From positions 3,232,001 through 3,296,000 of the forward strand of contig CBDCWI010000002.1 in NCBI GenBank assembly GCA_965223325.1: a DNA stretch of 64,000 nt, in the 5' to 3' direction. The notes below the pieces were generated by a model. The model did not search any database, was not told where the DNA came from, and was given only the letters and a program-made list of their open reading frames with translations. Shown here one piece after another: positions 4,898 through 27,612 of the stretch. Every line of letters starts with the position of its first letter. Positions within the stretch are counted from its first letter, which is position 1. The position numbers were made by a program, and so were the translations under genes. Source of the stretch: Candidatus Multivoradales bacterium. Its GTDB lineage: Bacteria > Acidobacteriota > Thermoanaerobaculia > Multivoradales > Multivoraceae.

Positions 4898-5097
4898 ACG
4901 CCGAGAAATTCAAAGAGGCCTACGCACGTCTGCAGGCACTGGACGACAAGACCTACAGAGTCCGGCCGCGTAGCGGTGGTCTGACACGGCCGAGCATCGA
5001 GCAACTGGAGGAGAAGATGCACGAGCTCGCCGACTACACGATCGATCTCAAAGAGATCGTCGACGACCTGTTCCAGGCAATCGCTGCACCCAGCTAG
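4894..5097 (+). CDS. Small coiled-coil hypothetical protein
   Basis: 67 aa with GTGA overlap, GGAG SD and GC3-biased codons. Confidence 0.75.
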   Translation: MNAEKFKEAYARLQALDDKTYRVRPRSGGLTRPSIEQLEEKMHELADYTIDLKEIVDDLFQAIAAPS

Positions 5098-5112
5098 CCA
5101 GCGAGTGTGAGG

Positions 5113-5616
5113 CTAGCGACTACCGGTCGACCCGTAGCCCCCGCTGCCGCGCTCGGTTTCGCGAGTCACAACGCCCTCGCTCACCAACACCATCGGAACC
5201 GGCGCCAGGAGAAGCTGAGCCACACGATTGCCTCGCTCGACCTCGAACGGCTGGTCACCGTGGTTGATCAAGAGCACCGAGACTTCGCCGCGATAGTCAC
5301 TGTCGATGGTGCCCGGAGCGTTGAGCACCGTCACGCCATGACGCAGTGCCAACCCGCTACGTGGACGAACCTGGCCCTCCCAGCCCTCGGGAATGGCGAA
5401 GACCAATCCGGTGGGCACCAGTCGACGTTCACCCGGGCCAATGACCAGCGTTTCATCGACGGCTGCCCGCAGGTCGAGACCCGCCGAGCCCGAGGTCGCG
5501 ACCTCGGGAAGCGGCACTCCTTCTGCATGCGCCAGTCGCTCGATTTCGAGTTGGACGGTGCAGCGGGGTAGAGAGACCTCGGAGCGGGCAGAGACGGCGA
5601 CCGGTGAAGTGTTCAT
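5113..5616 (-). CDS. dut: dUTP diphosphatase
   Basis: Motifs [28 protein letters not shown] and [10 protein letters not shown]. Start placed at ATG 5616, 7 nt after TATATT. Confidence 0.95.
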
Positions 5617-5644
5617 TGCCGCCAATATAGCCTCTACTCAGACG

Positions 5645-6676
5645 CTAGTTGTTGCGCCGGCGAGGCGGCCGCGGAGATGGGAGGCGCGGCTGGCGCGGAC
5701 GATCTCCGTCGTCGTTGCGGCCGACGTCCGGTCGGTCGCCGCGCCGATCGCCGAATCGACTGCCACTCTGGTCGCGATCGCTTCCCAACCCGCCTCGATT
5801 GCCGAGACCGCGACCGCCGCCGAGCTCCTGCCCCTGGCCACCACCAGGGCCGCTTCCCTGTTCGATCTGCGGCTCCAGGCCTTCAGGGAAGGGACGCCAG
5901 AAAACGCCACTGTTCGGCCGCGGCATCGGCTTGTCGGCGCCGAGAATGATGGGCTGCGGCACGATGTCGGCACGGAAGTGCCACTTCTCGTAGTTCGTTT
6001 CGCCGAGAAAAACGCGGATGCTGTCGCCTTCGACAGCCGGGTAGACGCCAATGATCGGTCCGGAGGTGCGCGACTCTCGTCGGCGACCGAAGACATCGCG
6101 TTCATCGCTCGGCGGTACCGCAACGACCGACGAGCCGCGCCGCTGTGAGGGTGCTTGACCAAATTCACCGCTGCGAGTCCCCGGTCCCGAGGGCACTTCG
6201 GAGCGACGGTCGCCGCTCGCGGATTGACCCTGACCCGGGCGGCGGGCCTCTGGGTTTCGCCCACCGCGGCGTCCCTGACCAGGCCGGGAACCAGGAGCAC
6301 CGGCACTGGTCTGGAGCAACACACCCCAGGCGCCGTCTTCGTTCATCGGGTTGGGAAAGAGCTGGCGAATGGCGCGGGGCTCTATTTCGACGAGTTCGTC
6401 GAGGGTGTTGGGGAAACGACCGTTGCGCAACTGGAATACGCGCACCGCCTCCGCGTATTGCATGCCGCGAAAGATCGTCTCGACCTCTTTCTCACGTTGA
6501 ATGACAGTCGACCAGCGCTCGAACCCTGCCGCCAGGAGAAGGTTGGCCACGGTAACCAACATCAAGAGAATGACGAGGTTGTAGCCTTCCTCGCCGCGAC
6601 GGCGAATGACCTCTGGGTCGGGAGCGACCTCGGGCCTTCCGCCCGGCATGAAGTTGCGCGTAAACACGGCTACCAA
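5645..6676 (-). CDS. Type II secretion/pilin-like protein (atypical pseudopilin) with Gly/Arg/Pro-rich insert and tail
   Basis: Class III-like signal EEG/YNLVILLMLV without E5, plus a QREKEVE..FRG.QY..A...F...GRFP..L.EL pseudopilin pattern. Start could be 6649. Confidence 0.75.
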   Translation of the reverse strand: MVAVFTRNFMPGGRPEVAPDPEVIRRRGEEGYNLVILLMLVTVANLLLAAGFERWSTVIQREKEVETIFRGMQYAEAVRVFQLRNGRFPNTLDELVEIEPRAIRQLFPNPMNEDGAWGVLLQTSAGAPGSRPGQGRRGGRNPEARRPGQGQSASGDRRSEVPSGPGTRSGEFGQAPSQRRGSSVVAVPPSDERDVFGRRRESRTSGPIIGVYPAVEGDSIRVFLGETNYEKWHFRADIVPQPIILGADKPMPRPNSGVFWRPFPEGLEPQIEQGSGPGGGQGQELGGGRGLGNRGGLGSDRDQSGSRFGDRRGDRPDVGRNDDGDRPRQPRLPSPRPPRRRNN

Positions 6677-7212
6677 TCCGAATAGAACGTCTCGCCGTTG
6701 AGCTCACGGTCCTCCGACAGCGAATAGACATCCCATATCCCCGGGGCGCCACTCTCATCGACATCGGTCTCGGCGGGAATCTCTTCCGAGTCGTACTCTT
6801 CGTACACAACCCCCCACTCGTCCGTGCCGGTGAATGGATCGCGCGGCAACGCCCTCAGATAGCCCTCTTCGACCAGCGCATCGAGCGTGCTCGGGTAGTG
6901 ACCCTTGTCGGCGTAGTGCTGATCGAGCAGGTCGCGCAGGGTGTGCAGAGTCGACTTGAGCGTCGCTTCTTTGGCCTTCCTGGGCACGTTGCGCATCGCC
7001 GGCATGGCTGCCGCGGCAAGAATGCCGATGATCGCGATCACAATGATCAGCTCCAACAAGGTGAAGCCCTGCTGGCCGGGACGACGGCTGCGAGCCAGGG
7101 TGAACCAGCCGGCTGCACCGGGCGAGGAGGGTGAAGGTGTCGTTCCGCTCTTCGGACGCTTCGCTTCTGGAACTTCGTGGACGAAAATCTCGAGCGCTGT
7201 GCCTTCCATCAT
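6670..7212 (-). CDS. Pseudopilin, GspG-like
   Basis: QQG/FTLLELIIVIAII and DKGHYPSTLDALVEEGYLRALPRDPFTG. Start placed at ATG 7212, just after the upstream stop. Confidence 0.88.
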   Translation of the reverse strand: MMEGTALEIFVHEVPEAKRPKSGTTPSPSSPGAAGWFTLARSRRPGQQGFTLLELIIVIAIIGILAAAAMPAMRNVPRKAKEATLKSTLHTLRDLLDQHYADKGHYPSTLDALVEEGYLRALPRDPFTGTDEWGVVYEEYDSEEIPAETDVDESGAPGIWDVYSLSEDRELNGETFYSDW

Positions 7213-7216
7213 CAGA

Positions 7217-7717
7217 TCACCAGGTCTCGTACGGCGTGCCATCAAGCGCCGTTCCTTCAGAAAGTGAATAGACGTCAAAGACATTCTCGCCACCCCAGGA
7301 CGTCGAGTCGGGTTCGTCGCGAACGCTACGCAGGCCCCACTCCTCCTCGCCGGTCATCGGGTCGACCGGAATGCGCCTCAAGAAGCGCACCTGGCGGTCG
7401 ACCTGTCCGACGACATCGACAGGCTCGATCAGGGTCTCGAGCTCGGCGGGGTAACCCTCTGAGCCAAGCTCGAGGGGAATCAACCCGGCATCGCTATAGC
7501 GCTTGTACTCGTCGATGGCGTTGCGCATGGTGCGCAGGTGATGGCGCAGTTCCATCTCCTTCGTACGCTTGACCGAGAACTTGGCCACCGGAACAGCGGC
7601 CATGGTAATGATGCCGAGCACGGCGATCACCACGACCAGCTCAATCAGCGTCGTGCCACGCTCAGAGCGTCGCGATCGAAAGCTCGGGCCACTCGCCCGC
7701 TGGGCCAAAGAGGTCAT
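7217..7717 (-). CDS. Pseudopilin, GspG-like
   Basis: ERG/TTLIELVVV and FLRRIPVDPMTG. The DVYSLSE..ALDG..Y..W tail is shared with the neighbouring pseudopilin. Confidence 0.88.
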   Translation of the reverse strand: MTSLAQRASGPSFRSRRSERGTTLIELVVVIAVLGIITMAAVPVAKFSVKRTKEMELRHHLRTMRNAIDEYKRYSDAGLIPLELGSEGYPAELETLIEPVDVVGQVDRQVRFLRRIPVDPMTGEEEWGLRSVRDEPDSTSWGGENVFDVYSLSEGTALDGTPYETW

Positions 7718-10491: not shown

Positions 10492-10638
10492 GTGGCTGTT
10501 CCTATGGTGCATGGTGTTGTCTGCTTTGAAATCGTTGTCTGCCGTTTCGGCCGCGTACTCATCGAGTCCCGCGCGGAGCGCTTCTGCCTGTCTTACGGAC
10601 GAGGTCGTGGCTCCGTCCTCGGCTGCGCCTTGAATCGT

Positions 10639-11286
10639 TCATCTGCCGCCCACTGCCAAGCGCTCGGGCTCCGCCTCGGGGAATCGCACCCAACCCACGC
10701 TGACCGACTCCAGGCCGACCTCGCGCACGATGAATTCTTCCTTGACTACTGAACCTGGTGGGGCGTTGTAAAGCACATCTTCGGGGTCTGAGAAAACCGC
10801 GATCGGTGCAGCCTGGGGTCCGAAACTCCCCAGGTAGCGCAGATCGATCGGTGGTGGCGTCGGTTTGGGGGGCTCTCGAGGCTGTTCCGGGGGACTTTCG
10901 ACCCGTGGTTGCCGGGGTGGCGGCGGCTTCGGGTCGACGCGCGGTGGCGGCGGCTGCCGCACGACCCGACGTGGTGCGTAGCGCCAGGGATTGCGACCAG
11001 GCGAGAACTCACTCGGCGAACCCTCGAGAGCCTCGAGGCGCAGGGCCAGGACCTCTCCGGGTCGACTCTCGGTGGCACCACGAGTGCGCGACGTGCGGCG
11101 CGTACGAGTGCGCGCCGGGCCCTCGACACCGTCGATGGCGGCGGCGACCTCGGCCCGGGAGCCGCCAGTGGCAGCCTCAACTGGGGGTGCTGGGGCTTCG
11201 CCGCCCAGGAGATAGCGCCCAACGAAAACCAAGAGCACGACCCCCAGACCGAGGAGAAGCAACTGCTCGCGCGGCTTGAGCTTCAT
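10639..11286 (-). CDS. PilP/GspC-position membrane-anchored Pro-rich protein
   Basis: N-terminal TM, GRNPWRY motif, poly-Pro linker and a C-terminal small beta domain (LRYLGSFG). Lies between PilO and the secretin. Confidence 0.65.
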   Translation of the reverse strand: MKLKPREQLLLLGLGVVLLVFVGRYLLGGEAPAPPVEAATGGSRAEVAAAIDGVEGPARTRTRRTSRTRGATESRPGEVLALRLEALEGSPSEFSPGRNPWRYAPRRVVRQPPPPRVDPKPPPPRQPRVESPPEQPREPPKPTPPPIDLRYLGSFGPQAAPIAVFSDPEDVLYNAPPGSVVKEEFIVREVGLESVSVGWVRFPEAEPERLAVGGR

Positions 11287-11888
11287 CGCCCGCCTCCCGC
11301 GGCGGCTCGCGACTCTTGGTACCCCGAGTTCTCAAAGAGCGTTGAGATTCGCAGGGCCACCGAAAGCGAGCCTTCTGTCGTGTCGGAGACCCGAATCTCT
11401 TCGAGGATCAGAAAGTGCTCGGAGAGCTCAATGAAGTTGATGAAGCGACGAAGCTCCTCATACTGCCCCTTGACTGAGAAGACAAAGGACTTGCGCAGCA
11501 GTTCATGATCTTCGATGGCCTCCTCGGGATAGGTAATGCCGGGGGGCTCGAGGCCCGCCCTGCTCGCCAGGTCCTTGACCTCACGGATGACGGCCGTCAG
11601 GCGCTGGCGTTCGGTTTCGAAGACCTCGTCGTAGAGGTACTGGATGCCCTCCCGGTTGCCGCTGGCGCGCTCCAACCGAGCGGCGACCTGCTCACGCTCG
11701 GCGAGCAGATCGGCAAGCCGCTCCTCCTCGCGGGCACGCTGCGAATCGAGAACGTCGACCCGGCCCGAGAACCTCACCTGGTACACAACGAGCAGGAGCA
11801 GGCCGAGAACGACCAGGGCGACAGGCACTCCCCAGCGCTTGCGCTCCTCGGCCCACAGGTCACGATCGAATGCGGTGTAGGACGTCAT
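11283..11888 (-). CDS. PilO/GspM-like protein
   Basis: TM, coiled coil and the PilO-type motif VKGQYEELRRFINFIE. Confidence 0.8.
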   Translation of the reverse strand: MTSYTAFDRDLWAEERKRWGVPVALVVLGLLLLVVYQVRFSGRVDVLDSQRAREEERLADLLAEREQVAARLERASGNREGIQYLYDEVFETERQRLTAVIREVKDLASRAGLEPPGITYPEEAIEDHELLRKSFVFSVKGQYEELRRFINFIELSEHFLILEEIRVSDTTEGSLSVALRISTLFENSGYQESRAAAGGGR

Positions 11889-13087
11889 GGGCCGACTCCC
11901 GGCGGCGAACTCGCGTTGGGTTGGCGCGGCTCGGGCTCCTCGGAGGGAGGGTTGGGGTCGACCGGGTCGGCCGGATCGGACGGCAGGTCATTCGTCGGCT
12001 GCTCCTGGGGAGCCAGATCGTCGGCCGGCGTCGGGCCGGTCGATGGGGTCGGCCGGCGAGCACTCGCTGGGGTCGAGCGGTTGCCACCGGGTCGGGTCGT
12101 CGGTCGAGGGTTCACCGCCGGCTGCGAGGCGGTGCCGCCAACCGCCGCCGGAGTCCCGGTCGCCGTGTCGGGTTCCCCCGTGCCAGGAGGCGCTGACCGC
12201 GCTGGGGTACTCGCCTGTCGGGTCGTCGTCGGTCGGGCCGTCGTTGGTCTGGGCGCCATCGGTCCCCTGCCCTCACCGCGACCGGTGCTCGGCGGTGGAA
12301 CGCTCGGCCGAGCCTGGGGGCGGGTGGTCGGGGTCGCCGCGACCTCCCGACCAGCGACCGGGGTCACGCCCGCTGGTGCTTCGGCTCCCCTCGGCGACTC
12401 CGGCCGAACCTCCGTTGACTGCACTGGCGTCGCCGACGAAGCGTCTGGGGTCGCAGAATCGGGTTCTGAAACCCCGGTCTCCGCGGCCGCTGGGTCGGCT
12501 TCATCCGTCTCGGGCAGGTAGCCCGTCTGGAGGCTAAAGGACAGTTCGTTTTGTTTGGTCGTGCGCTCTCGCTCGAGACGCGGCACCTGGAAGGCCTCGT
12601 GTTCGAAGAGGCGATCAAGCAAAGCCAACAGCTCGTCGGTGTTCGCCGCCACGCCGGTCATCGTCAGAGTGACCGGCCCGCGCTCGTCGCCCTTCGAACG
12701 AGATTCGTCGTCGTGGAGATGGACCTTGGGGCTCAGGCTTTCGATGCGAACTCTCTCAGGCAAGACCTCGCCGAGCTGCTCGAACAAGCGGCCCCAGGCA
12801 AACGTGCGCTGATCGATGCGCTGATTGAGAAACTCGACCCGGGAGTTCTGGCCACGGACATCGAGCCTGGCCAACTCGGCCTGGAGGTCCCGAATCACCT
12901 GGCGCTCCTCGCTGATCTGCGCTCGCACATCACGGAGATCGTCGCGCGAACCCGTCGATCCCGAGAAGTAGCGACCGAACAAAACCAGCGCCAGCACCAG
13001 GAGAGCGGCGCCGAGGATCATCAAGAAGGCACTCAACCGCTCGAGAGGACGGCGGTTGACGAACGGCCGGCGCGCCAAGTTCAGCAT
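11885..13087 (-). CDS. PilN-like protein with ~200-aa Pro/Thr/Ala-rich tail
   Basis: LNLARRPF N-terminus, TM, coiled coil, and W..LF..L...LP..V.I.SL.P motif. Confidence 0.8.
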   Translation of the reverse strand: MLNLARRPFVNRRPLERLSAFLMILGAALLVLALVLFGRYFSGSTGSRDDLRDVRAQISEERQVIRDLQAELARLDVRGQNSRVEFLNQRIDQRTFAWGRLFEQLGEVLPERVRIESLSPKVHLHDDESRSKGDERGPVTLTMTGVAANTDELLALLDRLFEHEAFQVPRLERERTTKQNELSFSLQTGYLPETDEADPAAAETGVSEPDSATPDASSATPVQSTEVRPESPRGAEAPAGVTPVAGREVAATPTTRPQARPSVPPPSTGRGEGRGPMAPRPTTARPTTTRQASTPARSAPPGTGEPDTATGTPAAVGGTASQPAVNPRPTTRPGGNRSTPASARRPTPSTGPTPADDLAPQEQPTNDLPSDPADPVDPNPPSEEPEPRQPNASSPPGVGP

Positions 13088-14068
13088 TCAGCGGACCTCC
13101 TCGAGCGCACTGCCGGCAAGAGGGGCCAAGAGGCCTTGCTCAGCGAACGAGAACGACTCGGACACCGACCAGTCCATGACCGGCAAAGCAGAAACCTCCG
13201 CCGCATCACTCAACCAGCTCGCCCAGACCGCCGCTGAGCTGCCAGGCGCCTGAACCCAGGCTTCCCGAACCCGCATGCCAGCGCGATGGCGCTCGAGGAA
13301 ATCGAGTGTCAGTGCCAGTTCGCGGCGAATCGTCTGCTCGAGGACGTCGAGCCCGACACCTTCCTTGATCGACTTGTGACGATAGAGAAGCGGCGCGGGT
13401 TCGGCGCTACCGGGGGGAGCGATCTGGTCGAGCTGGATCGTATAGCCCTCTGGGCAGGCAACCACCAGCACGCGCACCGCCTCGGGGTCGGCTCGGTGCG
13501 GAGCCGCCAGGGTGCGAGCGTCGAGCAGCCGTGTGCAGGCCATGCTCTCCGACACTACGTTGCCAATGTGGACTCCGGCGCGTTCGAAGGCCGCTTCGAG
13601 CTGGGACACGAGGCGGTCGATGGCAAACGCCAGTGCGATCCGACGTTCGCCCCCTGCCTTGACCGGCGGCAGGTTGAGCTCGCGCACCCGCAACTCATCG
13701 ACCCGGAAGGGCACCAGGCGGCGCAACTTCCACTGCAGCGCTTCGTCGCGGGCGGCTCCGCGCTTCGGAACGTCACCCGCATCGCTGACCACCAACCGCA
13801 ACCACGGATCGGGAAGAACGAGGGAAGCCTCGACGAGGTCGCCCGAAGACACCTGTACCAACGCTTCGACCGAGGGCATCAGATCGGCAACGTCGCGCAG
13901 CGTTCCCCCGAGCGGTCCCTCGAGGAAAATGCCCGGGCGAATCGCAACTTCGTGAGCTTCGAGAACGCGCGGCGCCTCGACTTCGGAGCGATCGAAGCGC
14001 GCATAGCGCAGCTCGGCGTGATCGATCCCGAACACGCTATCTGGCACCGGTCGCGGGTCGAGGCCCAC
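13088..14068 (-). CDS. PilM/GspL-like cytoplasmic platform protein
   Basis: ASLVLPD and WKLRRLVPF motifs, located between the ATPase and PilN. Start uncertain (14068-14107). Confidence 0.7.
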   Translation of the reverse strand: MGLDPRPVPDSVFGIDHAELRYARFDRSEVEAPRVLEAHEVAIRPGIFLEGPLGGTLRDVADLMPSVEALVQVSSGDLVEASLVLPDPWLRLVVSDAGDVPKRGAARDEALQWKLRRLVPFRVDELRVRELNLPPVKAGGERRIALAFAIDRLVSQLEAAFERAGVHIGNVVSESMACTRLLDARTLAAPHRADPEAVRVLVVACPEGYTIQLDQIAPPGSAEPAPLLYRHKSIKEGVGLDVLEQTIRRELALTLDFLERHRAGMRVREAWVQAPGSSAAVWASWLSDAAEVSALPVMDWSVSESFSFAEQGLLAPLAGSALEEVR

Positions 14069-14075
14069 GAGGCGC

Positions 14076-15773
14076 TCAATCGACGAAGGTAACTTTATTG
14101 ATCTCACGGAGTGTGGTGATTCCTTCTGCGACCTTCTGGAGGGCGCTTTCCCTCAAGAAGTGCATGCCCTCTTCCTTGGCGGCACGTTTGATCTCGGACG
14201 CCGGACGGCGATCGAGGATGAGTTCTCTGATTCGGTCGGAGAGGTTGAGCAGCTCCGAGACGGCCAGGCGACCGTGATAGCCGGTGCCGTTGCACTCGAC
14301 GCAGCCGCCGCCGTTGTAGAACTGCACATCGGTCCAATCGTTCTTGTCGAGTCCGGACTCCTCGAACAGGGCGTCGTCGATATCGGTCGGGTGTTTGCAG
14401 TGCGGGCAGATGCGGCGAACGAGGCGCTGTGCCAGAACGCAGTTGAGGGCCGAAACGAAGTTGTAGAGGTCGACGTTCATGTTCAGAAAGCGACCCAGCA
14501 CGTCGACGACGTTGTTGGCATGAACGGTGGTGAAGACCAGATGGCCCGTAAGCGCCGATTGGATCGCGATCTGTGCCGTTTCTTCATCACGGATCTCACC
14601 GACCATGATCTTGTCGGGGTCGTGGCGCAGAATCGACCGCAAGCCGCGTGCGAAAGTGAGCCCCTTGCGCTCGTTGACCGGAATCTGCGTGATGCCCTTG
14701 AGCTGGTACTCGACCGGGTCTTCGATGGTGATGATTTTGTCTTCGGACGACTGGATCTCAGACAGCGACGCGTAGAGGGTCGTGGTTTTGCCGGAACCCG
14801 TCGGCCCGGTGACCAGGACCATGCCGTAGGGCTCACGAATGAACTTGCGCAGCTTGGTCATCGTGTCTTCGTCGAAGCCCAGAATGTCGAGCCGCAGGGT
14901 CGAGAACTCCTCGTTCATCGACTCCTTGTCGAGAATCCGGATGACGCAGTCTTCGCCATGAACGGAGGGCATGATCGAAACACGGAAGTCGATGGTGCGC
15001 CCCTTGACGCGCAGCTTGAAACGACCGTCCTGGGGAATGCGCTTCTCGGCGATATCGAGCTCGGACATGACCTTGATTCGACTGATGATCGTCTGGTGGT
15101 GACGCTTGTCGATCGGTTCCATCGCCTGATAGAGCACGCCGTCGATGCGGTACTTGATGACCACTTCGTTCTCACGGGTCTCGATGTGAATGTCCGAGGC
15201 ACGCCGCTGAATGGCGTTGAAGATTGTCGAATCGACGAGCCGAATGATCGGGCTTGTGTCGTCGGCGCTGATGCGGTCGATCGACAGCACCTCGTCGCCA
15301 TCCTCATCGTCCTGAACCAGCTGTATCCGGAAGTCTTCGGTCGCCTCGTCCAGCACCCGCTGGGCGGACTCAGACTTCTGCAGCATCTCCTCGATCAGAA
15401 AACCCGCTCCAACCCTCGGCTCGAGCGGCTGACCGAGCTGGAGTTCCAGCTCGTCGAGCTTGACGACATCGGAGGGATCGGCCATGACGATACCCAGCCG
15501 CCCTTCGAGTTGCCGGTCGGGGATGAACTCGTAGCGCAGCATCAGCTCGAACGGCACCTGGCGCAGTAGATCGTTGTCGATGCGGAAGTGCTCGAGGTCG
15601 ACGTAGTCAAAACCGTAGCGATGTGCCAGATCCTGCGCATTGTCGATCTCTGCGAGCCTCCGCGCCTCGGAGACGGCGCCGGTCTCGAGACTGGCCGAGA
15701 TCTCCTCGAGCGACGGCGCATCAGCCGCCGCCGGCGCCCGCACTTTCGGATCTTCGTCGAGGGTGGTCATCAC
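14076..15773 (-). CDS. GspE/PilB family assembly ATPase
   Basis: ASDIHIE, Walker A GPTGSGKTTT, IEDPVEY, DPDKIMVGEIRD, His boxes and two CxxC motifs. Confidence 0.96.
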   Translation of the reverse strand: MMTTLDEDPKVRAPAAADAPSLEEISASLETGAVSEARRLAEIDNAQDLAHRYGFDYVDLEHFRIDNDLLRQVPFELMLRYEFIPDRQLEGRLGIVMADPSDVVKLDELELQLGQPLEPRVGAGFLIEEMLQKSESAQRVLDEATEDFRIQLVQDDEDGDEVLSIDRISADDTSPIIRLVDSTIFNAIQRRASDIHIETRENEVVIKYRIDGVLYQAMEPIDKRHHQTIISRIKVMSELDIAEKRIPQDGRFKLRVKGRTIDFRVSIMPSVHGEDCVIRILDKESMNEEFSTLRLDILGFDEDTMTKLRKFIREPYGMVLVTGPTGSGKTTTLYASLSEIQSSEDKIITIEDPVEYQLKGITQIPVNERKGLTFARGLRSILRHDPDKIMVGEIRDEETAQIAIQSALTGHLVFTTVHANNVVDVLGRFLNMNVDLYNFVSALNCVLAQRLVRRICPHCKHPTDIDDALFEESGLDKNDWTDVQFYNGGGCVECNGTGYHGRLAVSELLNLSDRIRELILDRRPASEIKRAAKEEGMHFLRESALQKVAEGITTLREINKVTFVD

Positions 15774-15798
15774 CAGAGGTCCTTTTGAAGCATCGCGA

Positions 15799-17013
15799 CT
15801 AGTTGAGCTGGCTCAGCATGCTGAACAGTGGGAGGTACATCGCAAGCAGGAGCAGCGACACAGCGGAGCCCATGATGACCAGCAGGATCGGGTCGAGAAC
15901 ACTCAACATGCGCTCGATTCGGGTCTCGATCTCCTCGTCGAAGAAGTCGCTGAGGTTCGACAGCATCTCGTCGAGCGCACCCGTCGCCTCGCCGACCTTG
16001 ACCATATCGATCCCCAGATCGGTGAACACCTCCGTGTCGTCGAGCGCCTGATGCAAGGACTCACCTTCGCGCACACCGGAAACGATGGGAATGAGACGCG
16101 TCTTCAGCCACTGGTTACCCACCGCTCCGACTGAGACTTCCAAGGACGGCACGAGGGGCATCCCGCCACTGAGCAGGACGGAAAGCGAGCGACAGAACTC
16201 CGAAAGCGAAAAGCGGTGCAGGACACCACCAACCAGCGGGATCTGGAGCTTCAACCCGTCGAGCCACTGGCGGCCCGGACCGGAGCGGGTCAAACGGCGA
16301 GCGAAGTAGATCGCCGCGCAAACGGCCAGGACGGCGAGGAGACCTGAGCGACTGCGCAGGAAATCTGAGAGATCGAGTAGCACCTGGGTGATCCATGGCA
16401 ACTCGACGTCCAGGGCGGTGAAGAAGCTGCGGAACGAAGGGATGACCCTGATCAGCATCATCGCCAACATTCCCAGCGACAGCGCGATCAGAAGCGTCGG
16501 GTAGATCAGGGCGTTGACAACCTTCTTGCGTGTATCCATCACCAGCTTCAGGTAGCGAATGAAGCGCCTGATGACCGACTCGAGCTCACCGGTGCGCTCG
16601 CCAGCCTTGAGGCTCGACGCATAGAGCGAAGGGAACGTGCCCTGGTACCGGCCGAAGGCCTCCGACATCTCTTCGCCGCTCGACAGTCGATCCCGTACGT
16701 CGATCAGGATCGCCTTGAACGTCGGGTTGCGCTGGCGCTCCAACATCATGTTGATCGAGTGCAGGAGTGGCAGCCCCGCTTTCAGCAGGCTGGCGAGTTC
16801 CTGGTTGAAGATCAAGAACTCGCGATCGGTCACCTTGCGTGAACCTAGATCGCGTAGGAGCGGCACATCGAACTTGAGGCCACGTTTCTCGAGTTCGAAG
16901 ACGTGGTAGCCGCGGCTCTCTAACGAGCCCCGCGCAGCCGCCTCGTCAGCGGCCTCGAAGACCTCTTCGAGAACCCGCCCATCGGGCGTACCGACGCGTG
17001 CCGAAAAGCGCAT
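15799..17013 (-). CDS. GspF/PilC inner-membrane platform protein
   Basis: LLKAGLPL, AGERTGEL, ALIYP, VGEATGAL and AMYLPLF motifs. GGAGG SD before ATG 17013. Confidence 0.95.
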   Translation of the reverse strand: MRFSARVGTPDGRVLEEVFEAADEAAARGSLESRGYHVFELEKRGLKFDVPLLRDLGSRKVTDREFLIFNQELASLLKAGLPLLHSINMMLERQRNPTFKAILIDVRDRLSSGEEMSEAFGRYQGTFPSLYASSLKAGERTGELESVIRRFIRYLKLVMDTRKKVVNALIYPTLLIALSLGMLAMMLIRVIPSFRSFFTALDVELPWITQVLLDLSDFLRSRSGLLAVLAVCAAIYFARRLTRSGPGRQWLDGLKLQIPLVGGVLHRFSLSEFCRSLSVLLSGGMPLVPSLEVSVGAVGNQWLKTRLIPIVSGVREGESLHQALDDTEVFTDLGIDMVKVGEATGALDEMLSNLSDFFDEEIETRIERMLSVLDPILLVIMGSAVSLLLLAMYLPLFSMLSQLN

Positions 17014-17014
17014 G

Positions 17015-17797
17015 TCAGCGACCTCCTCGCGCGCCGGCCGCAGCACGACAGGTCACTGCGATCACCAGGGCGGTTTCGGCCTCGGCGTCTTGTGCGAAGC
17101 CGAGCGCAACGGTGCGGTCGAGCCACAGATTGACGTGCGAATGAAAGAGCGGCTCTTCCTTTTGCTCCAGGTTGCCGGATCGCTGACGCGGTGTATCCAC
17201 CTCACCAGGGCCACCGAGCACCTTGAAGCCGGCCAGACGCAAGCGCTGATTCGGCATCACTGTTCCTACATCGAACAGGATCTGGTAGCCGGAGCCGAGG
17301 CGGTAGCTCTCGGTCTGGCCCTCACGAGTCAGGAAGGAGGCGTCGGCGAGAACGCGGTACTCGTTGTAGTTGAGCAACTTCCCCAGCCGCTGGGCGAGTT
17401 CGGCCGAAGGGTGACGCGGATCACCCGAGGGACCGCTCATCCGTCGGCTCGCCTCGAGAATCTGGATCTCGATTTCGATCTCACGCGCCGGGTGATCGAG
17501 TTCGCGGAGGAGGTGCAACATCGCACTGACGCGTCGCGGCGTATCGATGACCCGAATGGTGCGGTTGTCGGCCGCCAACTCGACCCGACCATGTGCCGAC
17601 AGCTGATTGCGCAGGAGCGTCATCGCGTCTGCCGCCGGCTGATGGCGCATCGAGTAGGAGCCCTCTTCGAGTACTTCGAGCGTCGGCGGCGTCGCGCGTT
17701 GGGCAGCGAGCAGTCCCGAGACCATAGCGAGGACCACCAACAGGCCCAGCACAACCAGGGCGCGCGGCAGGTGAGGCTGGGGCTTCGAGATCAACAT
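17015..17797 (-). CDS. Exported protein with a secretin N-domain (NolW-like) segment
   Basis: Signal/TM followed by YSMRH..A...L...LS..G.V...ADNRTIRVIDTP..V.....L.ELDHPAREIEIEIQILEA, which resembles a secretin N3-to-barrel junction. Confidence 0.6.
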   Translation of the reverse strand: MLISKPQPHLPRALVVLGLLVVLAMVSGLLAAQRATPPTLEVLEEGSYSMRHQPAADAMTLLRNQLSAHGRVELAADNRTIRVIDTPRRVSAMLHLLRELDHPAREIEIEIQILEASRRMSGPSGDPRHPSAELAQRLGKLLNYNEYRVLADASFLTREGQTESYRLGSGYQILFDVGTVMPNQRLRLAGFKVLGGPGEVDTPRQRSGNLEQKEEPLFHSHVNLWLDRTVALGFAQDAEAETALVIAVTCRAAAGARGGR

Positions 17798-17869
17798 CGG
17801 AGGGAGGGTTCGCTGGAGCGGTCAGAAAGGAGCGCCGCGTCGGGGGAGGGAAGAAACAGACGGTGGCGC

Positions 17870-18538
17870 CTAGCGACCACCGGAAGGGGCAGACTGAAGT
17901 CGGGGACCTCGACCGAGCAGCATGACGACGTCCAGATCGTCCTGGTGATAAACGACGCGAGCTGCTCCGTCGGCCGTCACCTCGTCGAAGATTTCGTCGA
18001 CCAGGGGCAGCTGATCGAGCATTTCACGCACGTCTTCGATGGCTGTCGCCTGGGCGGCGTCGGTCAAGGTTGCGGCGGGCTGCTGCCACTCTTGACCAGT
18101 CGCACCGGTGGTAGCGCGTGTGGGGAAAGCGCGAGCAGCGCGCCGTGGATCGAGCGCTGCCGGCGACTGAATCACGACGCCCTGTTGGCTGGCATGCTGC
18201 TGCAGCGCTGGCTGAGCCGCGGCTTCGACCGAAACGGCAGGAGCCACCAGAAGCGGTAGTCGCAGGCTGGCCAACGCCACCAGCAGGATCCCCGCGGCGA
18301 CCGCCACCATGGCTTGCCAGCGAGGCCTCATCATCGGTGCGGAATCGATCGACCAGGCACCACTGGATTCGGCAAGCAGGCCGCGGTCCGCGAGCCGGGT
18401 CAGCTCGAGCACGCTGTGGCGCATCTGCTCGACTTCGCTGTCTGTGACCGGGGGGGCTTCGAGATCACGGAAGAGATCGAGAACGTCTGGCTCCGCGGCG
18501 GCAGACCGTTGGCGGCTCTTGGGGCTCTCGTGCTTCAT
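17870..18538 (-). CDS. Putative single-pass membrane anti-sigma factor
   Basis: ATGA overlap with the ECF sigma gene and a central TM (WQAMVAVAAGILLVALASL). No zinc-binding ZAS motif visible. Confidence 0.6.
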   Translation of the reverse strand: MKHESPKSRQRSAAAEPDVLDLFRDLEAPPVTDSEVEQMRHSVLELTRLADRGLLAESSGAWSIDSAPMMRPRWQAMVAVAAGILLVALASLRLPLLVAPAVSVEAAAQPALQQHASQQGVVIQSPAALDPRRAARAFPTRATTGATGQEWQQPAATLTDAAQATAIEDVREMLDQLPLVDEIFDEVTADGAARVVYHQDDLDVVMLLGRGPRLQSAPSGGR

Positions 18539-19221
18539 CGGCCTTCTTCCCCGGAATCTTCTCGGCCGGCGAAGGCGCGCACGTACTCGGGATAGCGGGC
18601 ACTCATCTCGCGCTTGAGGACCCGCCGGGCCTGGAAGAGATGGTTGCGGACGGTGGACTCTCGACAGCCAACGATCGCGGCCACCTCGCACGTTGGCATT
18701 CCTTCGAGCTCGCGGAGCACGAACACGGTGCGTTGGCGATCGGTCAGCTCAAGGGCGACTTCGGTGAAGATTCGCGAAATCTCTCGCTGATCCAGCGTCG
18801 CGCGCACCCTCTCTGCCTGACCCGCGGCTCGCAACTCGACGTGATGCCCGAAGGGCTCCCGCACTCGGTCGCGAGACTTGCGCGAGCGCAGGTGATCGAT
18901 CGAGAGGTTGGTGGCGATGCGGTAGATCCAGGTGTTGGGACTGTGGCGACCGTCGTAGCGGTCGCGGTGGGTCCAGATCTTCAGGAAAGTCATCTGGACG
19001 ACGTCGTGAGCCTCTTCCAGGTCGCCGAGAATGCGATACGCGACCCCGACGAGCGGCCTGGTCTTGCGCTCGACCAGCTCGCCGAGAGCCAGCTCACTGC
19101 CTGCCTGTATCTCTGCCAGCAGCACGCGGTCGTCGGCAGCGGCCAGATCCTCTTGCTCCCGGGCTCTCGAAAAGGCGAGCCTGGGGCCGGTGGTCTGGGA
19201 AGCTCTGGTTGGTTCGGTCAC
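18535..19221 (-). CDS. ECF RNA polymerase sigma factor
   Basis: Region 2 AHDVVQMTFLKIW...TWIYRIATNLSIDHLR and region 4 VFVLRELEG...EVA.IVG..ESTVRNHLFQAR. Confidence 0.95.
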   Translation of the reverse strand: MTEPTRASQTTGPRLAFSRAREQEDLAAADDRVLLAEIQAGSELALGELVERKTRPLVGVAYRILGDLEEAHDVVQMTFLKIWTHRDRYDGRHSPNTWIYRIATNLSIDHLRSRKSRDRVREPFGHHVELRAAGQAERVRATLDQREISRIFTEVALELTDRQRTVFVLRELEGMPTCEVAAIVGCRESTVRNHLFQARRVLKREMSARYPEYVRAFAGREDSGEEGR

Positions 19222-19490
19222 GGTCGTCTCATGAGGGGCGGGTTTTTCGTCGCTGGCTTCAGGGGAGCAGTCGCGGAAGCGAGCGCACCAGCAGGATGAA
19301 TACGGATGCCGATGCCGGGGCGTCTAGGTCCCGGACGGTCCCCGGCGTTTTTCGGGAAGTCGCCCCTGGGGGAAAGCGGGCTCAGCTGGCCCATGCTATC
19401 TCTGAAAAACTCGTTTTTGAGGCAGGGACGGCACGAACCGGTGATTATACTGACGCCCCTCTACCCGCTTCGCCTGAAACCCCTCAGCCA

Positions 19491-20792
19491 ATGTGGCCTC
19501 TTTATCGGCTCGCCCTCACGGCAGCCCTCGTCCTCCTGTCCCCCTGGCTGCTTCTGCGTCGCGGGCGCCACTATCTTCCGACCCTACGGGGACGTCTCGC
19601 CCTCGCCGACGATGAAGCTCTGGCTCCCAAAGCCGACGGATCGCGCCCCCTCTGGATCCACGCCGTCTCGGTGGGTGAAGTGGGAGTCGCCGCGACGCTG
19701 GTCTCGGCGCTGCCCGAGGACCTGCCCGTGGTGGTCACGACAGTCACTCCAACTGGCCAGGAACGAGCCCGCGTAGTCTTTGGATCCCGCGCCCGGGTGA
19801 ACTACCTGCCGTTGGATCTCCGCGGACCGATACGCCGATTCCTCTTCCGCTACCACCCGACCGGCCTGATCTTGATCGAAGGCGAGTTCTGGCCGCTCTT
19901 GCTTGCCGAGCTCGAGCAGCGAGCGATTCCGGTCGCACTGGTAAACGGCCGAATCTCCGATCGAACCGCCGGGCGCATGTTGAAGCTCCGTCGACTCGTC
20001 GCACCCATGTTGCGCCGCGTCGGCCTGCACCTGGTTCAGACAGAAGCCGACGCCGCGCGCCTCGGAGCGCTCGGCGTTCCCGAAACCGCGATCGAAGTGA
20101 CCGGGAACCTCAAATACGAGAGCCCCCTGCCGCGGAGCTCTCCTGAGCTCGAGGCAACGGTTCTCGCCCTGGCGGGAGGTCGCCCGATCTTCGTTGCCGG
20201 CTCAACCATGCCGGAGGAGGAAAGCCAGGTTCTCGAAGCCTGGAAGGCGATCGGCGGAGAGCGTTCTCTGCTGGTACTCGCACCCAGACACCCCGAACGC
20301 TTCGCCGCCGTCGCCCAGGAACTCGAGCGCGCAGGCCTCTCTTGGCTTCGGCGCTCAGACGAGCCAGGGCGAGGGGCGGCAGGAGATCCAGGACGACGCT
20401 TCGACGTTTTGCTGCTCGACACGCTTGGCGAGCTGGCCGGCCTCTACGCCATCGCCACCGTGGCTTTCGTTGGAGGAACACTCGTACCCACGGGTGGCCA
20501 CAACCCACTCGAACCGGCACGTTTTGGCATTCCGACCACGGTCGGGCCATCGATGCACAACTTTCGCGAGATGGCGGAGCAATTCCAACAAGCAGACGCC
20601 TGGCGTCAGGTCGAGAACGCGAGCGAGCTGGCGCTTGCCTGGCAGGCGCTACTCGATGACCCCGCCGAAGCGCAGCAGCTTGGCGAGCGGGCGACCCGGC
20701 TGGTGGAGGCTCACCGCGGCTCACTCTGTCGTACCCGGCGTGCGCTCGGTGACTACTTCTCCGAACAGCTCGGTCGGGAGCCACACTCATGA
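19491..20792 (+). CDS. waaA: 3-deoxy-D-manno-octulosonic acid (Kdo) transferase
   Basis: LWIHAVSVGE, NGRISD, TGNLKYE, APRHPER, DTLGEL and GGHNPLEPA motifs. Start trimmed to ATG 19491. Confidence 0.95.
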   Translation: MWPLYRLALTAALVLLSPWLLLRRGRHYLPTLRGRLALADDEALAPKADGSRPLWIHAVSVGEVGVAATLVSALPEDLPVVVTTVTPTGQERARVVFGSRARVNYLPLDLRGPIRRFLFRYHPTGLILIEGEFWPLLLAELEQRAIPVALVNGRISDRTAGRMLKLRRLVAPMLRRVGLHLVQTEADAARLGALGVPETAIEVTGNLKYESPLPRSSPELEATVLALAGGRPIFVAGSTMPEEESQVLEAWKAIGGERSLLVLAPRHPERFAAVAQELERAGLSWLRRSDEPGRGAAGDPGRRFDVLLLDTLGELAGLYAIATVAFVGGTLVPTGGHNPLEPARFGIPTTVGPSMHNFREMAEQFQQADAWRQVENASELALAWQALLDDPAEAQQLGERATRLVEAHRGSLCRTRRALGDYFSEQLGREPHS

Positions 20793-22770: not shown

Positions 22771-22788
22771 TGGGCGGGCCAAGTGGGC

Positions 22789-23316
22789 CTACTCCAATTC
22801 GAACAGCCGATCCCCACCTTCAACGGCTTGGCCTGGCTCAACGAAGAGCTTCTTGACCACACCGTCGGCTTCGGCTTCGATTTCGTTCTCCATCTTCATC
22901 GCCTCGAGAACCAGCACCCCCTGCCCTGCCTCGACGGTCGCACCTTCTTCGACCAACAAGGTGACCACCCGCCCGGGCATCATGGCGAACGCGACTTTGG
23001 CGCCCTGGGCTCCTGCGCCGCCACCCGCTTCGGCAGCCAGGTGGGTGAGGGGATCCGACACCTGCACCACGGTGTCTTCGCCGCACATCGCGACCCGGTA
23101 GGCATCACCCGCGAAGGGCGACCGTTCCGGGAGCACCGCAACCTCGACCTGCTGACCGTCGATCAGGAGGCTGCGCACGACGCCGTTGCCGGCGTAGTCG
23201 ACCTCGTAGCTACGCGGACCCTCCTCGTCCTCGAGCGAGACTTTGAAGCGACCCGGTGCCAGAACACGAACCCTGGCCCGCGCTTCGCGGTCGCCAGCTG
23301 CAAGAAACCAGTCCAT
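22789..23316 (-). CDS. Biotin carboxyl carrier protein with N-terminal BT-like domain
   Basis: EAMKMENEI biotinylation motif and MPGRVV. Confidence 0.93.
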   Translation of the reverse strand: MDWFLAAGDREARARVRVLAPGRFKVSLEDEEGPRSYEVDYAGNGVVRSLLIDGQQVEVAVLPERSPFAGDAYRVAMCGEDTVVQVSDPLTHLAAEAGGGAGAQGAKVAFAMMPGRVVTLLVEEGATVEAGQGVLVLEAMKMENEIEAEADGVVKKLFVEPGQAVEGGDRLFELE

Positions 23317-23383
23317 CAGCTCCGCTCCTCCCGCTGGTCAACACTGTCCGGCTTCGGCTGCATCCTCTTCCGCGCACCAGAGC

Positions 23384-24928
23384 TCATCGGAGCGCCTCAG
23401 ACCGCGCCCTCTGGCGCCACCGCTGCCTGAGTCCCGCCCCACGCGTGGGATCTTCGAACGACACATCGCGGGCCGGCTTGCCGACGTGGGCGAGAACCGC
23501 CGCGATCATCGCCAGGTCACCCTGACTGGCGGCTCCGTTGGTGGAACCGTCGCCGTTCGACTCGGGTCCCAGGGCGCCAGAACCGAGCTTGCGGTCCAGC
23601 ATGCCGATGTCCATCTGGGCGCTCCGAAAGTCCGAATCGGCAAGCAGCGCCCTGAAGAGCGGCACCGTCGTGCGAATACCTTCGATACGAAGTTCGTCGA
23701 GGGCCCGCCCGAGCCGCGCCATCGCAACATCACGATTGGAACCATGGACGATCAACTTGGCAAGCATCGGGTCGTAATGAATCGACACTTCGCTTCCCTG
23801 AACGACGCCGCTATCGGTGCGCACTCCCGGCCCCTCCGGCCAACGCAAATGCTCGATCCGCCCGGGCGAGGGCGCGAAGTTGCGCCACGGATCCTCGGCG
23901 TAGATGCGCACCTCGATTGCATGTCCACGCGGCTCGAGGTCGCTCCAGGCCTCCGGTAACTCGCGACCCTCGGCGATATCGAGCTGGGCATGCACGAGAT
24001 CGATGCCGGTGACAGCCTCAGTGACGGGATGCTCCACCTGAAGCCGAGTGTTCATCTCTAGGAAATAGAAGTCACCGTCGGCATCGAGCAAGAACTCGAT
24101 GGTGCCTGCGCCTTCGTAGGCCACGGCTTTGGCAGCGCGCACTGCCGCCTCCCCCATGCGACGGCGCAGGCCACGATCGACGACCATCGATGGCGCCTCC
24201 TCGACGACTTTCTGGTGACGTCGCTGCAATGAACATTCGCGCTCGCCGAGCGAAACGACGTTGCCCGCCTGATCGCCGAGGATCTGGATCTCCACGTGAC
24301 GGGGATCGACCACGAAGCGCTCGACGTAGACCGCGGCGTCGCCGAAGCTCGCGCCGGCCTCAGACGTCGCGGCCCGGTAAGCGGCGGCCATCTCGTCGGC
24401 CGACTGCACCAGGCGCATCCCCTTGCCTCCACCCCCGGCCGACGCCTTGAGCATCACCGGATAGCCAATCTCGGCCGCAGCAGACTCCGCCGCCTGGGCG
24501 TCGGCCAAGGGCTCGGTTCCACCTGGAACAACTGGCACCCCGGCATCGATCATCAGCTTGCGGCTGGCGATCTTCGAGCCCATCGCTTCAATCGACTCGG
24601 GCGACGGACCGATGAACACCAGCCCAGCGTCGCGGCAAGCGCGCGAAAACGTCGCCCGCTCGGAAAGGAAGCCGTAGCCCGGATGAATCGCATCCGCCCC
24701 GATGCGAAGCGCAAGCGCGACGATGTCGTCGGCTTTCAAGTAGCTCTCCGTTGAGGGCGCAGGGCCCAGACACCAGGCTTCGTCAGCAAGCGCGACGTGA
24801 AGCGCATCGCGGTCGGCTTCCGAATACACCGCGACCGAACGCACATCGCGCTCTCGGAGGGCACGAATCACACGCACTGCGATCTCGCCTCGGTTGGCGA
24901 TCAATACCTTTCCAAGCGATCCACTCAT
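23384..24928 (-). CDS. Biotin carboxylase subunit of an acyl-CoA carboxylase
   Basis: LIANRGEIA, HPGYGFLSE, GGGGKGMR, ERECSLQRRHQK, EMNTRLQVEH and YDPMLAKL motifs. Confidence 0.96.
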   Translation of the reverse strand: MSGSLGKVLIANRGEIAVRVIRALRERDVRSVAVYSEADRDALHVALADEAWCLGPAPSTESYLKADDIVALALRIGADAIHPGYGFLSERATFSRACRDAGLVFIGPSPESIEAMGSKIASRKLMIDAGVPVVPGGTEPLADAQAAESAAAEIGYPVMLKASAGGGGKGMRLVQSADEMAAAYRAATSEAGASFGDAAVYVERFVVDPRHVEIQILGDQAGNVVSLGERECSLQRRHQKVVEEAPSMVVDRGLRRRMGEAAVRAAKAVAYEGAGTIEFLLDADGDFYFLEMNTRLQVEHPVTEAVTGIDLVHAQLDIAEGRELPEAWSDLEPRGHAIEVRIYAEDPWRNFAPSPGRIEHLRWPEGPGVRTDSGVVQGSEVSIHYDPMLAKLIVHGSNRDVAMARLGRALDELRIEGIRTTVPLFRALLADSDFRSAQMDIGMLDRKLGSGALGPESNGDGSTNGAASQGDLAMIAAVLAHVGKPARDVSFEDPTRGAGLRQRWRQRARSEALR

Positions 24929-27474: not shown

Positions 27475-27612
27475 GGAAGGGTTTCCCCAGGAGGTCGGGA
27501 GGGGCGCGCGCAAAAGCACCGGGGCGTGACGTGCGGGAACACATCAGCGAAGCGACGAGCTTTTTCGGTCAAAGCGTCCTCTTCGGACGCCGCGGTGAAT
27601 CATAATCGGCCC

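Follow-up and report, generated by a model that had tools for sequence, protein, structure and literature searches.

A secretin-like protein as candidate periplasmic partner of an anti-sigma factor at the head of a secretion/pilus operon in Acidobacteriota

Introduction

In the RpoE/RseA/RseB system of Escherichia coli, the genes stand in the order sigma factor, single-pass anti-sigma factor and periplasmic protein, and RseB binds the periplasmic part of RseA and modulates RseA proteolysis. In the FecA/FecR/FecI system, an STN domain communicates with a single-pass anti-sigma factor in the periplasm. Here, we describe a locus of Candidatus Multivoradales bacterium (Acidobacteriota; GenBank assembly GCA_965223325.1, contig CBDCWI010000002.1, positions 3,232,001 to 3,296,000; this whole stretch of 64,000 nucleotides is called the window) in which genes for a sigma factor of the extracytoplasmic function (ECF) type, a single-pass membrane protein and a 260-aa secretin-like protein, termed the mini-secretin, precede the genes of a secretion/pilus machine. 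On balance, we consider it probable that this triad is an ECF module with a domesticated secretin fragment as its periplasmic partner, which heads, and probably autoregulates, the secretion/pilus operon.

The closest described analogue is the PUMA3 system of Pseudomonas aeruginosa, composed of the barrel-less, STN-containing receptor-like protein VreA, the ECF sigma factor VreI and the anti-sigma factor VreR. The genes vreA/vreI/vreR lie directly upstream of hxc type II secretion system (T2SS) genes, which are induced by VreI overexpression (PMC2729926). The ECF classification 2.0, in the main text and the available part of its supplement, names the ECF02 context of RpoE/RseA/RseB and lists ECF32 with type III secretion system (T3SS) genes and ECF254 with Tad/T2SSF genes; the term 'secretin' is absent from these portions, which mention no secretin-like accessory protein (PMC7826278). 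A full-text literature search returned no paper joining an ECF sigma factor, an anti-sigma factor, a secretin and Acidobacteria. A preceding interpretation of the window, made from its letters without database searches (the sequence-only reading), had stated that no example of such a circuit was described, which goes too far in view of VreA/VreI/VreR upstream of the Hxc T2SS (PMC2729926).

Results

A small protein with a secretin N3-like domain and a putative reduced secretin core

The mini-secretin starts with a hydrophobic helix that contains no lipobox cysteine (the coordinates of all features are collected in Table 1). As a single sequence, it gives only a weak Secretin_N match (E 9e-4; 19.9 bits, below the cut-off of 28.2). 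The profile of its family matches the N domains of PilQ, GspD and HofQ in the Protein Data Bank (PDB) with E-values of 5.6e-10 to 3.3e-8, up to the junction strand, which identifies a domain of the Secretin_N (N1-N3) type. The strand itself, EIEIEIQILEA, can be aligned with the junction between N3 and secretin domain in both PilQ and the secretin encoded in the window. Neither the Pfam Secretin domain (PF00263) nor, at E ≤ 1, the STN domain (PF07660) was matched in the protein.

A word-index search with the mini-secretin found one relative only. A full HMMER scan of 1.84 billion representatives retrieved 284 members at E ≤ 1e-3, of which 166 reach E ≤ 1e-10; in nearly every case they are 230-280 aa long and matched over their full length, and the size of the family and these end-to-end matches argue that the mini-secretin is not a chance reading frame. 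In the atlas, the nearest clusters bear the label 'hypothetical protein'; 59-76% of their members carry Secretin_N, and they are commonest in Acidobacteriota, with a further set commonest in Candidatus Aminicenantota; the known taxa of the mini-secretin family are Acidobacteriota. Among 113 family sequences (alignment A1), 13 positions are nearly invariant.

Using alignment A1, we obtained an AlphaFold2 (AF2) model with a predicted local distance difference test (pLDDT) score of 89 and a predicted TM-score (pTM) of 0.75, in which a helix (residues 12-32) is followed by a beta-alpha-beta-beta-alpha unit (44-100), a long strand (106-117), a second helix (132-141) and seven strands (146-252); the strands are short, at 6-13 residues. 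An AF2 model from the single sequence (pLDDT 46) was unusable and was discarded. When the model from A1 was compared with the PDB using Foldseek, all 37 matches at E ≤ 1e-3 were secretins (PilQ, InvG, XcpQ, pIV, BfpB, GspD and RcpA), the best being PilQ 6w6m (E 3.4e-8), and lipid-binding C2 beta sandwiches came next (E 3e-3 to 1e-2). An hhalign comparison with 15 true secretins from the window and related loci (alignment A5) covers 158 columns, placing mini-secretin residues 37-195 on secretin residues 253-443 (E 6.1e-5), and passes through the conserved secretin core motif. By sequence comparison, the mini-secretin is an N3 domain and junction strand with a strongly reduced secretin core, and not a pore-forming secretin. 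The sequence-only reading had proposed, for an exported protein, an N3-like domain, the junction that normally starts the secretin barrel and a short beta-rich remainder; domain, junction and remainder are all borne out, the last as one alpha helix and seven strands.

The triad is linked to gspF and the machine in related loci

The minus strand carries the genes for the sigma factor, the membrane protein and the mini-secretin, gspF and the downstream machine. The sigma gene ends in TGA (18537-18535), and this stop overlaps, as ATGA, the ATG (18538) that opens the 222-aa open reading frame (ORF); after 72 nt follows the 260-aa ORF, whose stop TGA (17017-17015) is separated by one base from the gspF ATG at 17013. 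Both the ATGA coupling and the single base before gspF are as noted earlier.

For comparison, we gathered 36 loci from one genome-contig scan with a narrow sub-family alignment (A3), and the neighbouring genes were counted by tblastn with the window proteins; owing to the narrow alignment, these loci are biased to one sub-family motif. They come from Acidobacteriota metagenome-assembled genomes (MAGs) labelled Thermoanaerobaculia, one Holophagales MAG and 'Multivoradales'. A sigma gene is found upstream in all 29 loci with at least 1500 nt of upstream sequence, gspF lies directly downstream in 35/35 (gap -1 to 42 nt), and a secretin gene is present in each of the 23 loci with at least 8500 nt downstream, while kdtA is divergently encoded in 27/29. 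The machine gene order and the closing pseudopilin block are conserved as well, which agrees with the earlier proposal that the triad heads a secretion/pilus operon. The sigma and anti-sigma genes overlap by 4 nt in 24/29 loci, and between the anti-sigma and mini-secretin genes there is either an overlap or a gap of no more than 13 nt in 24/29 relatives, compared with 72 nt in the window.

In two family members, P0022 (372 aa) and P0145 (333 aa), the mini-secretin ORF continues into the GspF N-terminus (MEFTARFGTPDGRV...) and then into an Arg-rich tail that looks out of frame. These run-on frames are probably frameshifts or gene-calling artefacts, and they reveal the same adjacency of the mini-secretin gene to gspF in further genomes.

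Complex prediction and natural fusions point to a tie with the anti-sigma factor

We predicted the complex of mini-secretin residues 35-260 (alignment A1) with residues 150-222 of the protein in anti-sigma position (alignment A4, which holds the window protein and 29 relatives). The score was 0.68 (runs 0.67, 0.69 and 0.68), compared with 0.00 for the best of three controls. The score mark used is reached by 116 of 157 solved complexes and by 2 of 215 mismatched pairs, counts that hold only roughly here because we used our own alignments. The runs share at least 83% of their contacts, and the pLDDT of the partner is 60-63. The best contacts fall on strands 216-238 of the beta module, the tightest being those of anti-sigma residues 202-207 with mini-secretin strand 229-235 and of residues 177-180 with mini-secretin 222-223. 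This prediction, which had been suggested as a check on the circuit, supports binding between the two proteins.

In addition, seven natural proteins join the N-terminus and transmembrane segment of a zinc-type anti-sigma factor (ZAS) to the junction strand and beta module, with no N3 domain (P0084, P0134, P0147, which is N-terminally partial, P0152, P0153, P0154 and P0155; from several source collections). In P0084, the N-terminal half matches a locus anti-sigma factor (E 4e-14) and the C-terminal half the window mini-secretin (E 4e-28); P0134 and P0147 match the latter with E 1e-20 and 7e-19. Since the fusions drop N3 and the best predicted contacts lie on strands 216-238, the signalling surface is probably not the N domain. 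The sequence-only reading had invoked N-domain signalling of the STN kind, as in FecA/FecR; this part has to be given up, the domain being of the Secretin_N type and the predicted contact lying on the beta module. Together, the complex prediction and the seven fusions make it plausible that the mini-secretin is wired to the anti-sigma factor.

Apparent fusions in five of the related loci (L003, L008, L017, L023 and L029) were rejected: they are GC-rich open frames, with the anti-sigma factor encoded in another frame.

The protein in anti-sigma position is of the zinc type in the relatives and looks truncated in the window

In the relatives, the ORF between the sigma and mini-secretin genes carries Cys-Pro-Asp-Trp ... 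His-x3-Cys-x2-Cys in 29/29 cases and is, by motif and position, a typical ZAS. It has one transmembrane segment and a conserved periplasmic C-terminus (...ARVYxxxGxDLSVVMIVDExLDV), and 28 of the 29 proteins end in a hydrophobic residue, then Asp/Glu/Gly, then a hydrophobic residue. The window protein retains the last cytoplasmic helix (EVEQMRHSV...), the transmembrane segment and the periplasmic beta motif ARVVYHQDDLDVVML. The cytoplasmic domain that defines a ZAS (Cys...His-x3-Cys-x2-Cys), found by motif in 29/29 relatives, is missing from it.

Pfam gave no family match for the 222-aa window protein, a search for relatives of its zinc-less form returned only the protein itself, and a longer GTG-initiated frame (to 18691) overlapping the sigma gene contains no zinc motif either. 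The window protein seems to be a relative of the ZAS proteins that lost its N-terminal part by deletion. Because the zinc motif is missing, anti-sigma activity in the window organism is doubtful; its sigma factor may be unrestrained, and the membrane protein and mini-secretin perhaps form a remnant or rewired pair. The FecR family was matched neither in the window protein nor in the relatives scanned. When the anti-sigma alignment was compared by hhalign with true secretins (probability 0.07) and with the mini-secretin family (0.2), no similarity was seen, so the anti-sigma tail holds no recognisable secretin piece.

A terminator-like hairpin at 17882-17861, at the spacer between this gene and the mini-secretin gene, was rejected as well (z -0.6; 59 of 200 shuffles fold as well; not conserved).

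The ECF sigma factor and candidate transcription signals

The sigma factor scores 106 bits against TIGR02937 (cut-off 42.9) and, at 228 aa, fits the ECF group (group IV), whose members have regions 2 and 4 only in about 200 aa; none of the named ECF subgroup models reaches its cut-off. The outer coordinate 19232 given for it earlier needs correction: it marks an out-of-frame ATG followed by a stop after four codons, and the in-frame GTG lies at 19221.

The pattern TAGAC-N16-18-CGTA occurs once in the 64-kb window (0.08 matches expected by chance) and upstream of the sigma gene in 27 of 30 sigma-holding loci. Its CGTA -10 element resembles those of ECF promoters such as that of Bacillus subtilis sigmaW, and we infer that the window sigma factor would use this site. 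Outside the sigma upstream region, in the roughly 20 kb of related-locus DNA checked per genome, the motif appears only between gspF and gspE, in L033 (5375-5399) and L034 (11891-11915), where it may form an internal promoter of the same type. In the relatives (L002-L035), TAGACG-N16-CGTAT(A) is followed about 10 nt further on by the sigma start ATGCTnGAGCTCGTC, so that the transcript would be nearly leaderless. The window sigma factor lacks the N-terminal extension of its relatives, and the leader is about 70-80 nt long.

A second element, GTATAAT, is present in 25 of 31 upstream regions. In the relatives, it lies about 10 nt from the ATG of the divergent kdtA, reading TATACT towards kdtA, and its distance to the sigma gene varies; it possibly belongs to kdtA, and its spacing points to a kdtA transcript without a leader or to a -10 box used in both directions. 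A search for classical AAC-N14-20-CGT upstream of the sigma gene gave no consistent site. A sigma-70 promoter scan of positions 5000-19600 returned one site (1.4 expected), inside gspE; that no promoter-like site precedes gspF fits the earlier view that the triad and the machine are transcribed together.

Genes of the machine and its surroundings

The ATPase encoded downstream of gspF stays below the cut-off of the GspE equivalog model and of the PilB one; the machine is therefore neither a textbook T2SS nor a textbook type IVa pilus (T4aP). We take the MshEN domain of this ATPase to be a c-di-GMP-binding module. The GspC family was not matched in the locus, and an Rfam search over the whole window gave 0 matches. 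The true secretin of the machine is unusual, with a probable lipobox (LVSAC) and an N-terminal tetratricopeptide repeat (TPR) region, like a fused pilotin, and with a cohesin-like domain at its C-terminus after an acidic linker; the lipobox cysteine is nearly invariant among 15 orthologues.

Upstream of the sigma gene and divergent from it lie kdtA, lpxK and a lipid A acyltransferase gene. The listed kdtA ORF (19209-20792, plus strand) is too long: relatives align from about residue 95, which places the ATG near 19491. Two further ORFs, of 826 aa (25039-27519, minus strand) and 215 aa (22783-23430, plus strand), have no Pfam/NCBIfam match at the thresholds used.

Table 1 Features of the triad, its candidate transcription signals and the downstream machine, in window coordinates.
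Feature	Position	Strand	Basis or remark
Conserved TATAAT element, kdtA-sigma intergenic region	19444..19449	.	orientation and owner ambiguous
ECF-type promoter candidate, TAGACG-N16-CGTAT(T)	19301..19326	-	about 80 nt 5' of sigma start
ECF sigma factor, 228 aa, GTG start	18535..19221	-	Sigma70_r2 E 1.7e-20; Sigma70_r4_2 E 2.2e-13
Single-pass membrane protein, 222 aa	17870..18538	-	one hydrophobic segment, about residues 74-104 (Kyte-Doolittle)
Spacer, 72 nt, anti-sigma-like gene to mini-secretin gene	17798..17869	-	between flanking ORFs
Mini-secretin, 260 aa, whole gene	17015..17797	-	family alignment, AF2 model, Foldseek, profile matches
Mini-secretin residues 8-35, signal peptide or uncleaved membrane anchor	17693..17776	-	hydropathy; helix 12-32 in model
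Mini-secretin residues 44-100, Secretin_N (N3-like) domain	17498..17668	-	family profile; beta-alpha-beta-beta-alpha in model
Mini-secretin residues 106-117, junction strand EIEIEIQILEAS	17447..17482	-	equivalent of the secretin domain's first strand
Mini-secretin residues 146-252, compact all-beta module with secretin core motif YRVLADASFLTREGQTESYRLGSGY and predicted docking strands 216-238	17042..17362	-	
GspF/PilC-type platform protein	15799..17013	-	Pfam T2SSF E 5e-53; TIGR02120 309.9 bits, below cut-off 424
GspE/PilB-type ATPase, MshEN N-terminal domain	14076..15773	-	Pfam T2SSE E 1.6e-133; MshEN E 1.1e-15
PilM-position ORF	14107-13088	-	no family match
PilN-like gene	13087-11885	-	family match; order kept across related loci
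PilO/GspM-like gene	11888-11283	-	family match; order kept across related loci
PilP-position ORF, 215 aa	11286-10639	-	order kept across related loci
True secretin of the machine, 932 aa	7714..10512	-	Pfam Secretin E 2e-42; Secretin_N E 6.2e-11; Cohesin E 7.9e-7
Pseudopilin/pilin gene 1	7717-7217	-	N_methyl / GspG-like matches
Pseudopilin/pilin gene 2	7293-6670 (true start probably internal)	-	N_methyl / GspG-like matches
343-aa ORF	6676-5645	-	closes conserved block (5645..7717) with the two pseudopilin genes

Discussion

A proposed mechanism and the points that weigh against it

Most likely, the mini-secretin is the periplasmic partner of the anti-sigma factor and not a pore. In the mechanism that we propose, the ECF sigma factor would transcribe from TAGACG-N16-CGTAT ahead of its own gene, giving one transcript for sigma factor, anti-sigma factor, mini-secretin, gspF, gspE, the pilMNO-like genes, the secretin and the pseudopilins. 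In the relatives, the single-pass anti-sigma factor would hold the sigma factor through its cytoplasmic zinc-type domain, and its periplasmic C-terminal hairpin would be clamped by beta-strand pairing on the edge strands 216-238 of the mini-secretin. The latter would act as a periplasmic sensor or co-anti-sigma factor, taking the place that RseB has both in gene order and in function; some lineages carry the secretin fragment fused to the anti-sigma factor, whose periplasmic domain it forms. Engagement of the secretin-like module by an event in the periplasm or at the outer membrane would change the clamp and expose the anti-sigma tail, with its conserved hydrophobic-Asp-Val C-terminus, to proteolysis, thereby freeing the sigma factor. 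If we had to name a signal, it would be the condition of the machine's own secretin or of outer-membrane assembly, perceived through the ring-building N3 domain or through free beta edges. Computation gives the gene arrangement, the fold with its homology, the conserved linkage, the predicted interface, the fusions and the promoter motif; that the genes are transcribed together, that the tail is shielded and then proteolysed, and what the signal is, we infer.

Several observations weigh against this reading. The window protein begins about 45-50 residues later than its relatives, all four zinc ligands are absent from it (A4), and it is also without the C-terminal LDV tail. Even in the relatives, anti-sigma identity is drawn from motif and position: Pfam zf-HC2 appears in only one of six relatives or fusions, at E 0.0089 and below the cut-off, and the A4 profile finds only marginal PDB matches, RsiW at E 0.55 and 3hug_B, presumably the anti-sigma factor RslA, at E 0.76. 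The complex score of 0.68 is a model confidence and not a measurement. The homology of the beta module to secretins is distant, with an hhalign probability of 65% (64.9), and the Foldseek TM-scores to secretins are low (0.26-0.33; root-mean-square deviation above 12 A). All 36 loci are Acidobacteriota MAGs of one clade found with one peptide pattern, so the linkage counts are not independent events. Lastly, a structural part of the machine would account equally well for the ring-building N3 domain and for the close link to gspF. The regulatory circuit through the anti-sigma factor that the sequence-only reading had put forward is consequently kept in part: the conserved triad, the complex prediction and the seven fusions speak for it, and the window's own anti-sigma-like protein, lacking the zinc part, speaks against it.

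Alternative readings

The main rival is a structural role, which we regard as rather unlikely and which would be compatible with a regulatory one. Here, the mini-secretin, membrane-anchored or periplasmic, would oligomerise through N3 and dock under the true secretin or intercalate with it, linking it to the GspF/GspE platform as a GspC- or PilP-like adaptor, and the proximity to the sigma and anti-sigma genes would reflect operon layout only. A true Secretin_N domain followed by a secretin junction, translational coupling to gspF in the window and 35/35 loci, best structural matches that are all ring-forming secretins and the missing GspC match all suit such a part. However, the seven fusions place the beta module on an anti-sigma factor and discard N3, the predicted interface with the anti-sigma tail passes its controls, a gene already occupies the PilP position, and strands of 6-13 residues are short beside those of barrel-forming secretins.

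Distinctly less probable, in our estimate, is a decoy reading, in which the mini-secretin poses as a subunit of the outer-membrane pore and so reports on the assembly of that pore. Through its N3 domain and free beta edges, it would pair with subunits of the true secretin that are unassembled or in the course of assembly, which would displace the anti-sigma hairpin and expose the hydrophobic-Asp-Val tail to a protease, so that transcription of the machine would be tuned to its own pore.

We give slightly less credence still to a general sensor of envelope or lipopolysaccharide (LPS) stress of the sigmaE/RseA/RseB kind, in which a lipid or an LPS intermediate would be the ligand of the beta module, with the secretion operon as one target among others. 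The gene order is that of rpoE-rseA-rseB, kdtA-lpxK-lpxL are divergently encoded in the window, as they are in 27 of the 29 loci whose sequence reaches 1500 nt or more upstream of the sigma gene, and C2 lipid-binding sandwiches rank next after secretins among the structural matches. Yet a gene order shared inside a single clade carries little weight, the promoter motif occurs only at this operon in the roughly 20 kb examined per genome, and the fold derives from a secretin, with no sign of RseB homology: RseB/MucB gave no Pfam/NCBIfam match at E ≤ 1 and does not appear among the Foldseek PDB matches listed.

A functionless, decaying fragment of a duplicated secretin gene, to which the far shorter length and the missing Pfam Secretin-domain match might point, is most improbable and already contradicted by conservation, given 284 representatives of nearly uniform length (230-280 aa) aligned end to end, 13 nearly invariant positions in 113 sequences, a confident compact fold and a position kept in 35/35 loci.

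Significance

Few signalling devices of bacteria are as common as ECF sigma/anti-sigma pairs, and the periplasmic sensing parts of these pairs are mostly unknown. The unnamed family described here, with its 284 representative clusters, has the look of a piece of a secretin taken over to serve a zinc-type anti-sigma factor in the periplasm, and the module precedes the genes of a complete T2SS/T4P-like machine. If the partner reading is true, it would add a new type of sensor domain for ECF signalling and, after PUMA3/Hxc, a second and independently evolved case of a barrel-less mimic of an outer-membrane protein that controls type II-like secretion. It would also open a way into how Acidobacteriota, a little-studied phylum abundant in soil and sediment, regulate secretion and pili. 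If instead the decoy holds, a secretion system would monitor itself through a domesticated fragment of its own secretin, again a new class of ECF sensor domain. For structural work, the mini-secretin provides a small soluble fold related to the secretin core.

Comparison with known systems

The locus resembles RpoE/RseA/RseB in its gene order and in the notion of a co-regulator in the periplasm, the shielding role being conjectural here; unlike RseB, the mini-secretin has a secretin-derived fold, and the operon runs on into a secretion/pilus machine. As in FecA/FecR/FecI, a domain shared with secretins is combined with a single-pass anti-sigma factor in the periplasm, but the STN/N0 domain (PF07660) was not found in the mini-secretin, there is no TonB-dependent barrel, and the contact is predicted on the beta module. 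VreR of PUMA3 is of the FecR type, whereas the anti-sigma factor of the mini-secretin loci is of the zinc type with a short periplasmic tail.

Secretins such as GspD, PilQ, InvG and pIV have in common with the mini-secretin the Secretin_N domain, the junction strand, the core motif and local structural similarity. In contrast to their 250 or more residues after N3, the mini-secretin has about 150; no N0, gate or S domain was recognised in it, the global TM-score is about 0.3, and a full secretin is encoded separately within the same operon.

As with ECF32 and ECF254, in the parts of the classification cited above (PMC7826278), an ECF sigma factor stands beside secretion or pilus genes that are probably under its control; those groups belong to other phyla (ECF254 to Clostridiales) and have other types of anti-sigma factor.

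The comparison with PUMA3 (PMC2729926) combines different origins with a shared design. We found no sequence relationship between the two systems, and their gene orders differ (vreA-vreI-vreR as opposed to sigma factor, anti-sigma factor, mini-secretin). VreA consists of an STN domain and a TolA/TonB-like C domain and derives from TonB-dependent transducers, whereas the mini-secretin appears to derive from a secretin (Secretin_N and a reduced core). In both, a small periplasmic protein with part of the architecture of an outer-membrane protein, and no barrel, has its gene beside those of an ECF sigma factor and a single-pass regulator, and T2SS genes follow directly downstream.

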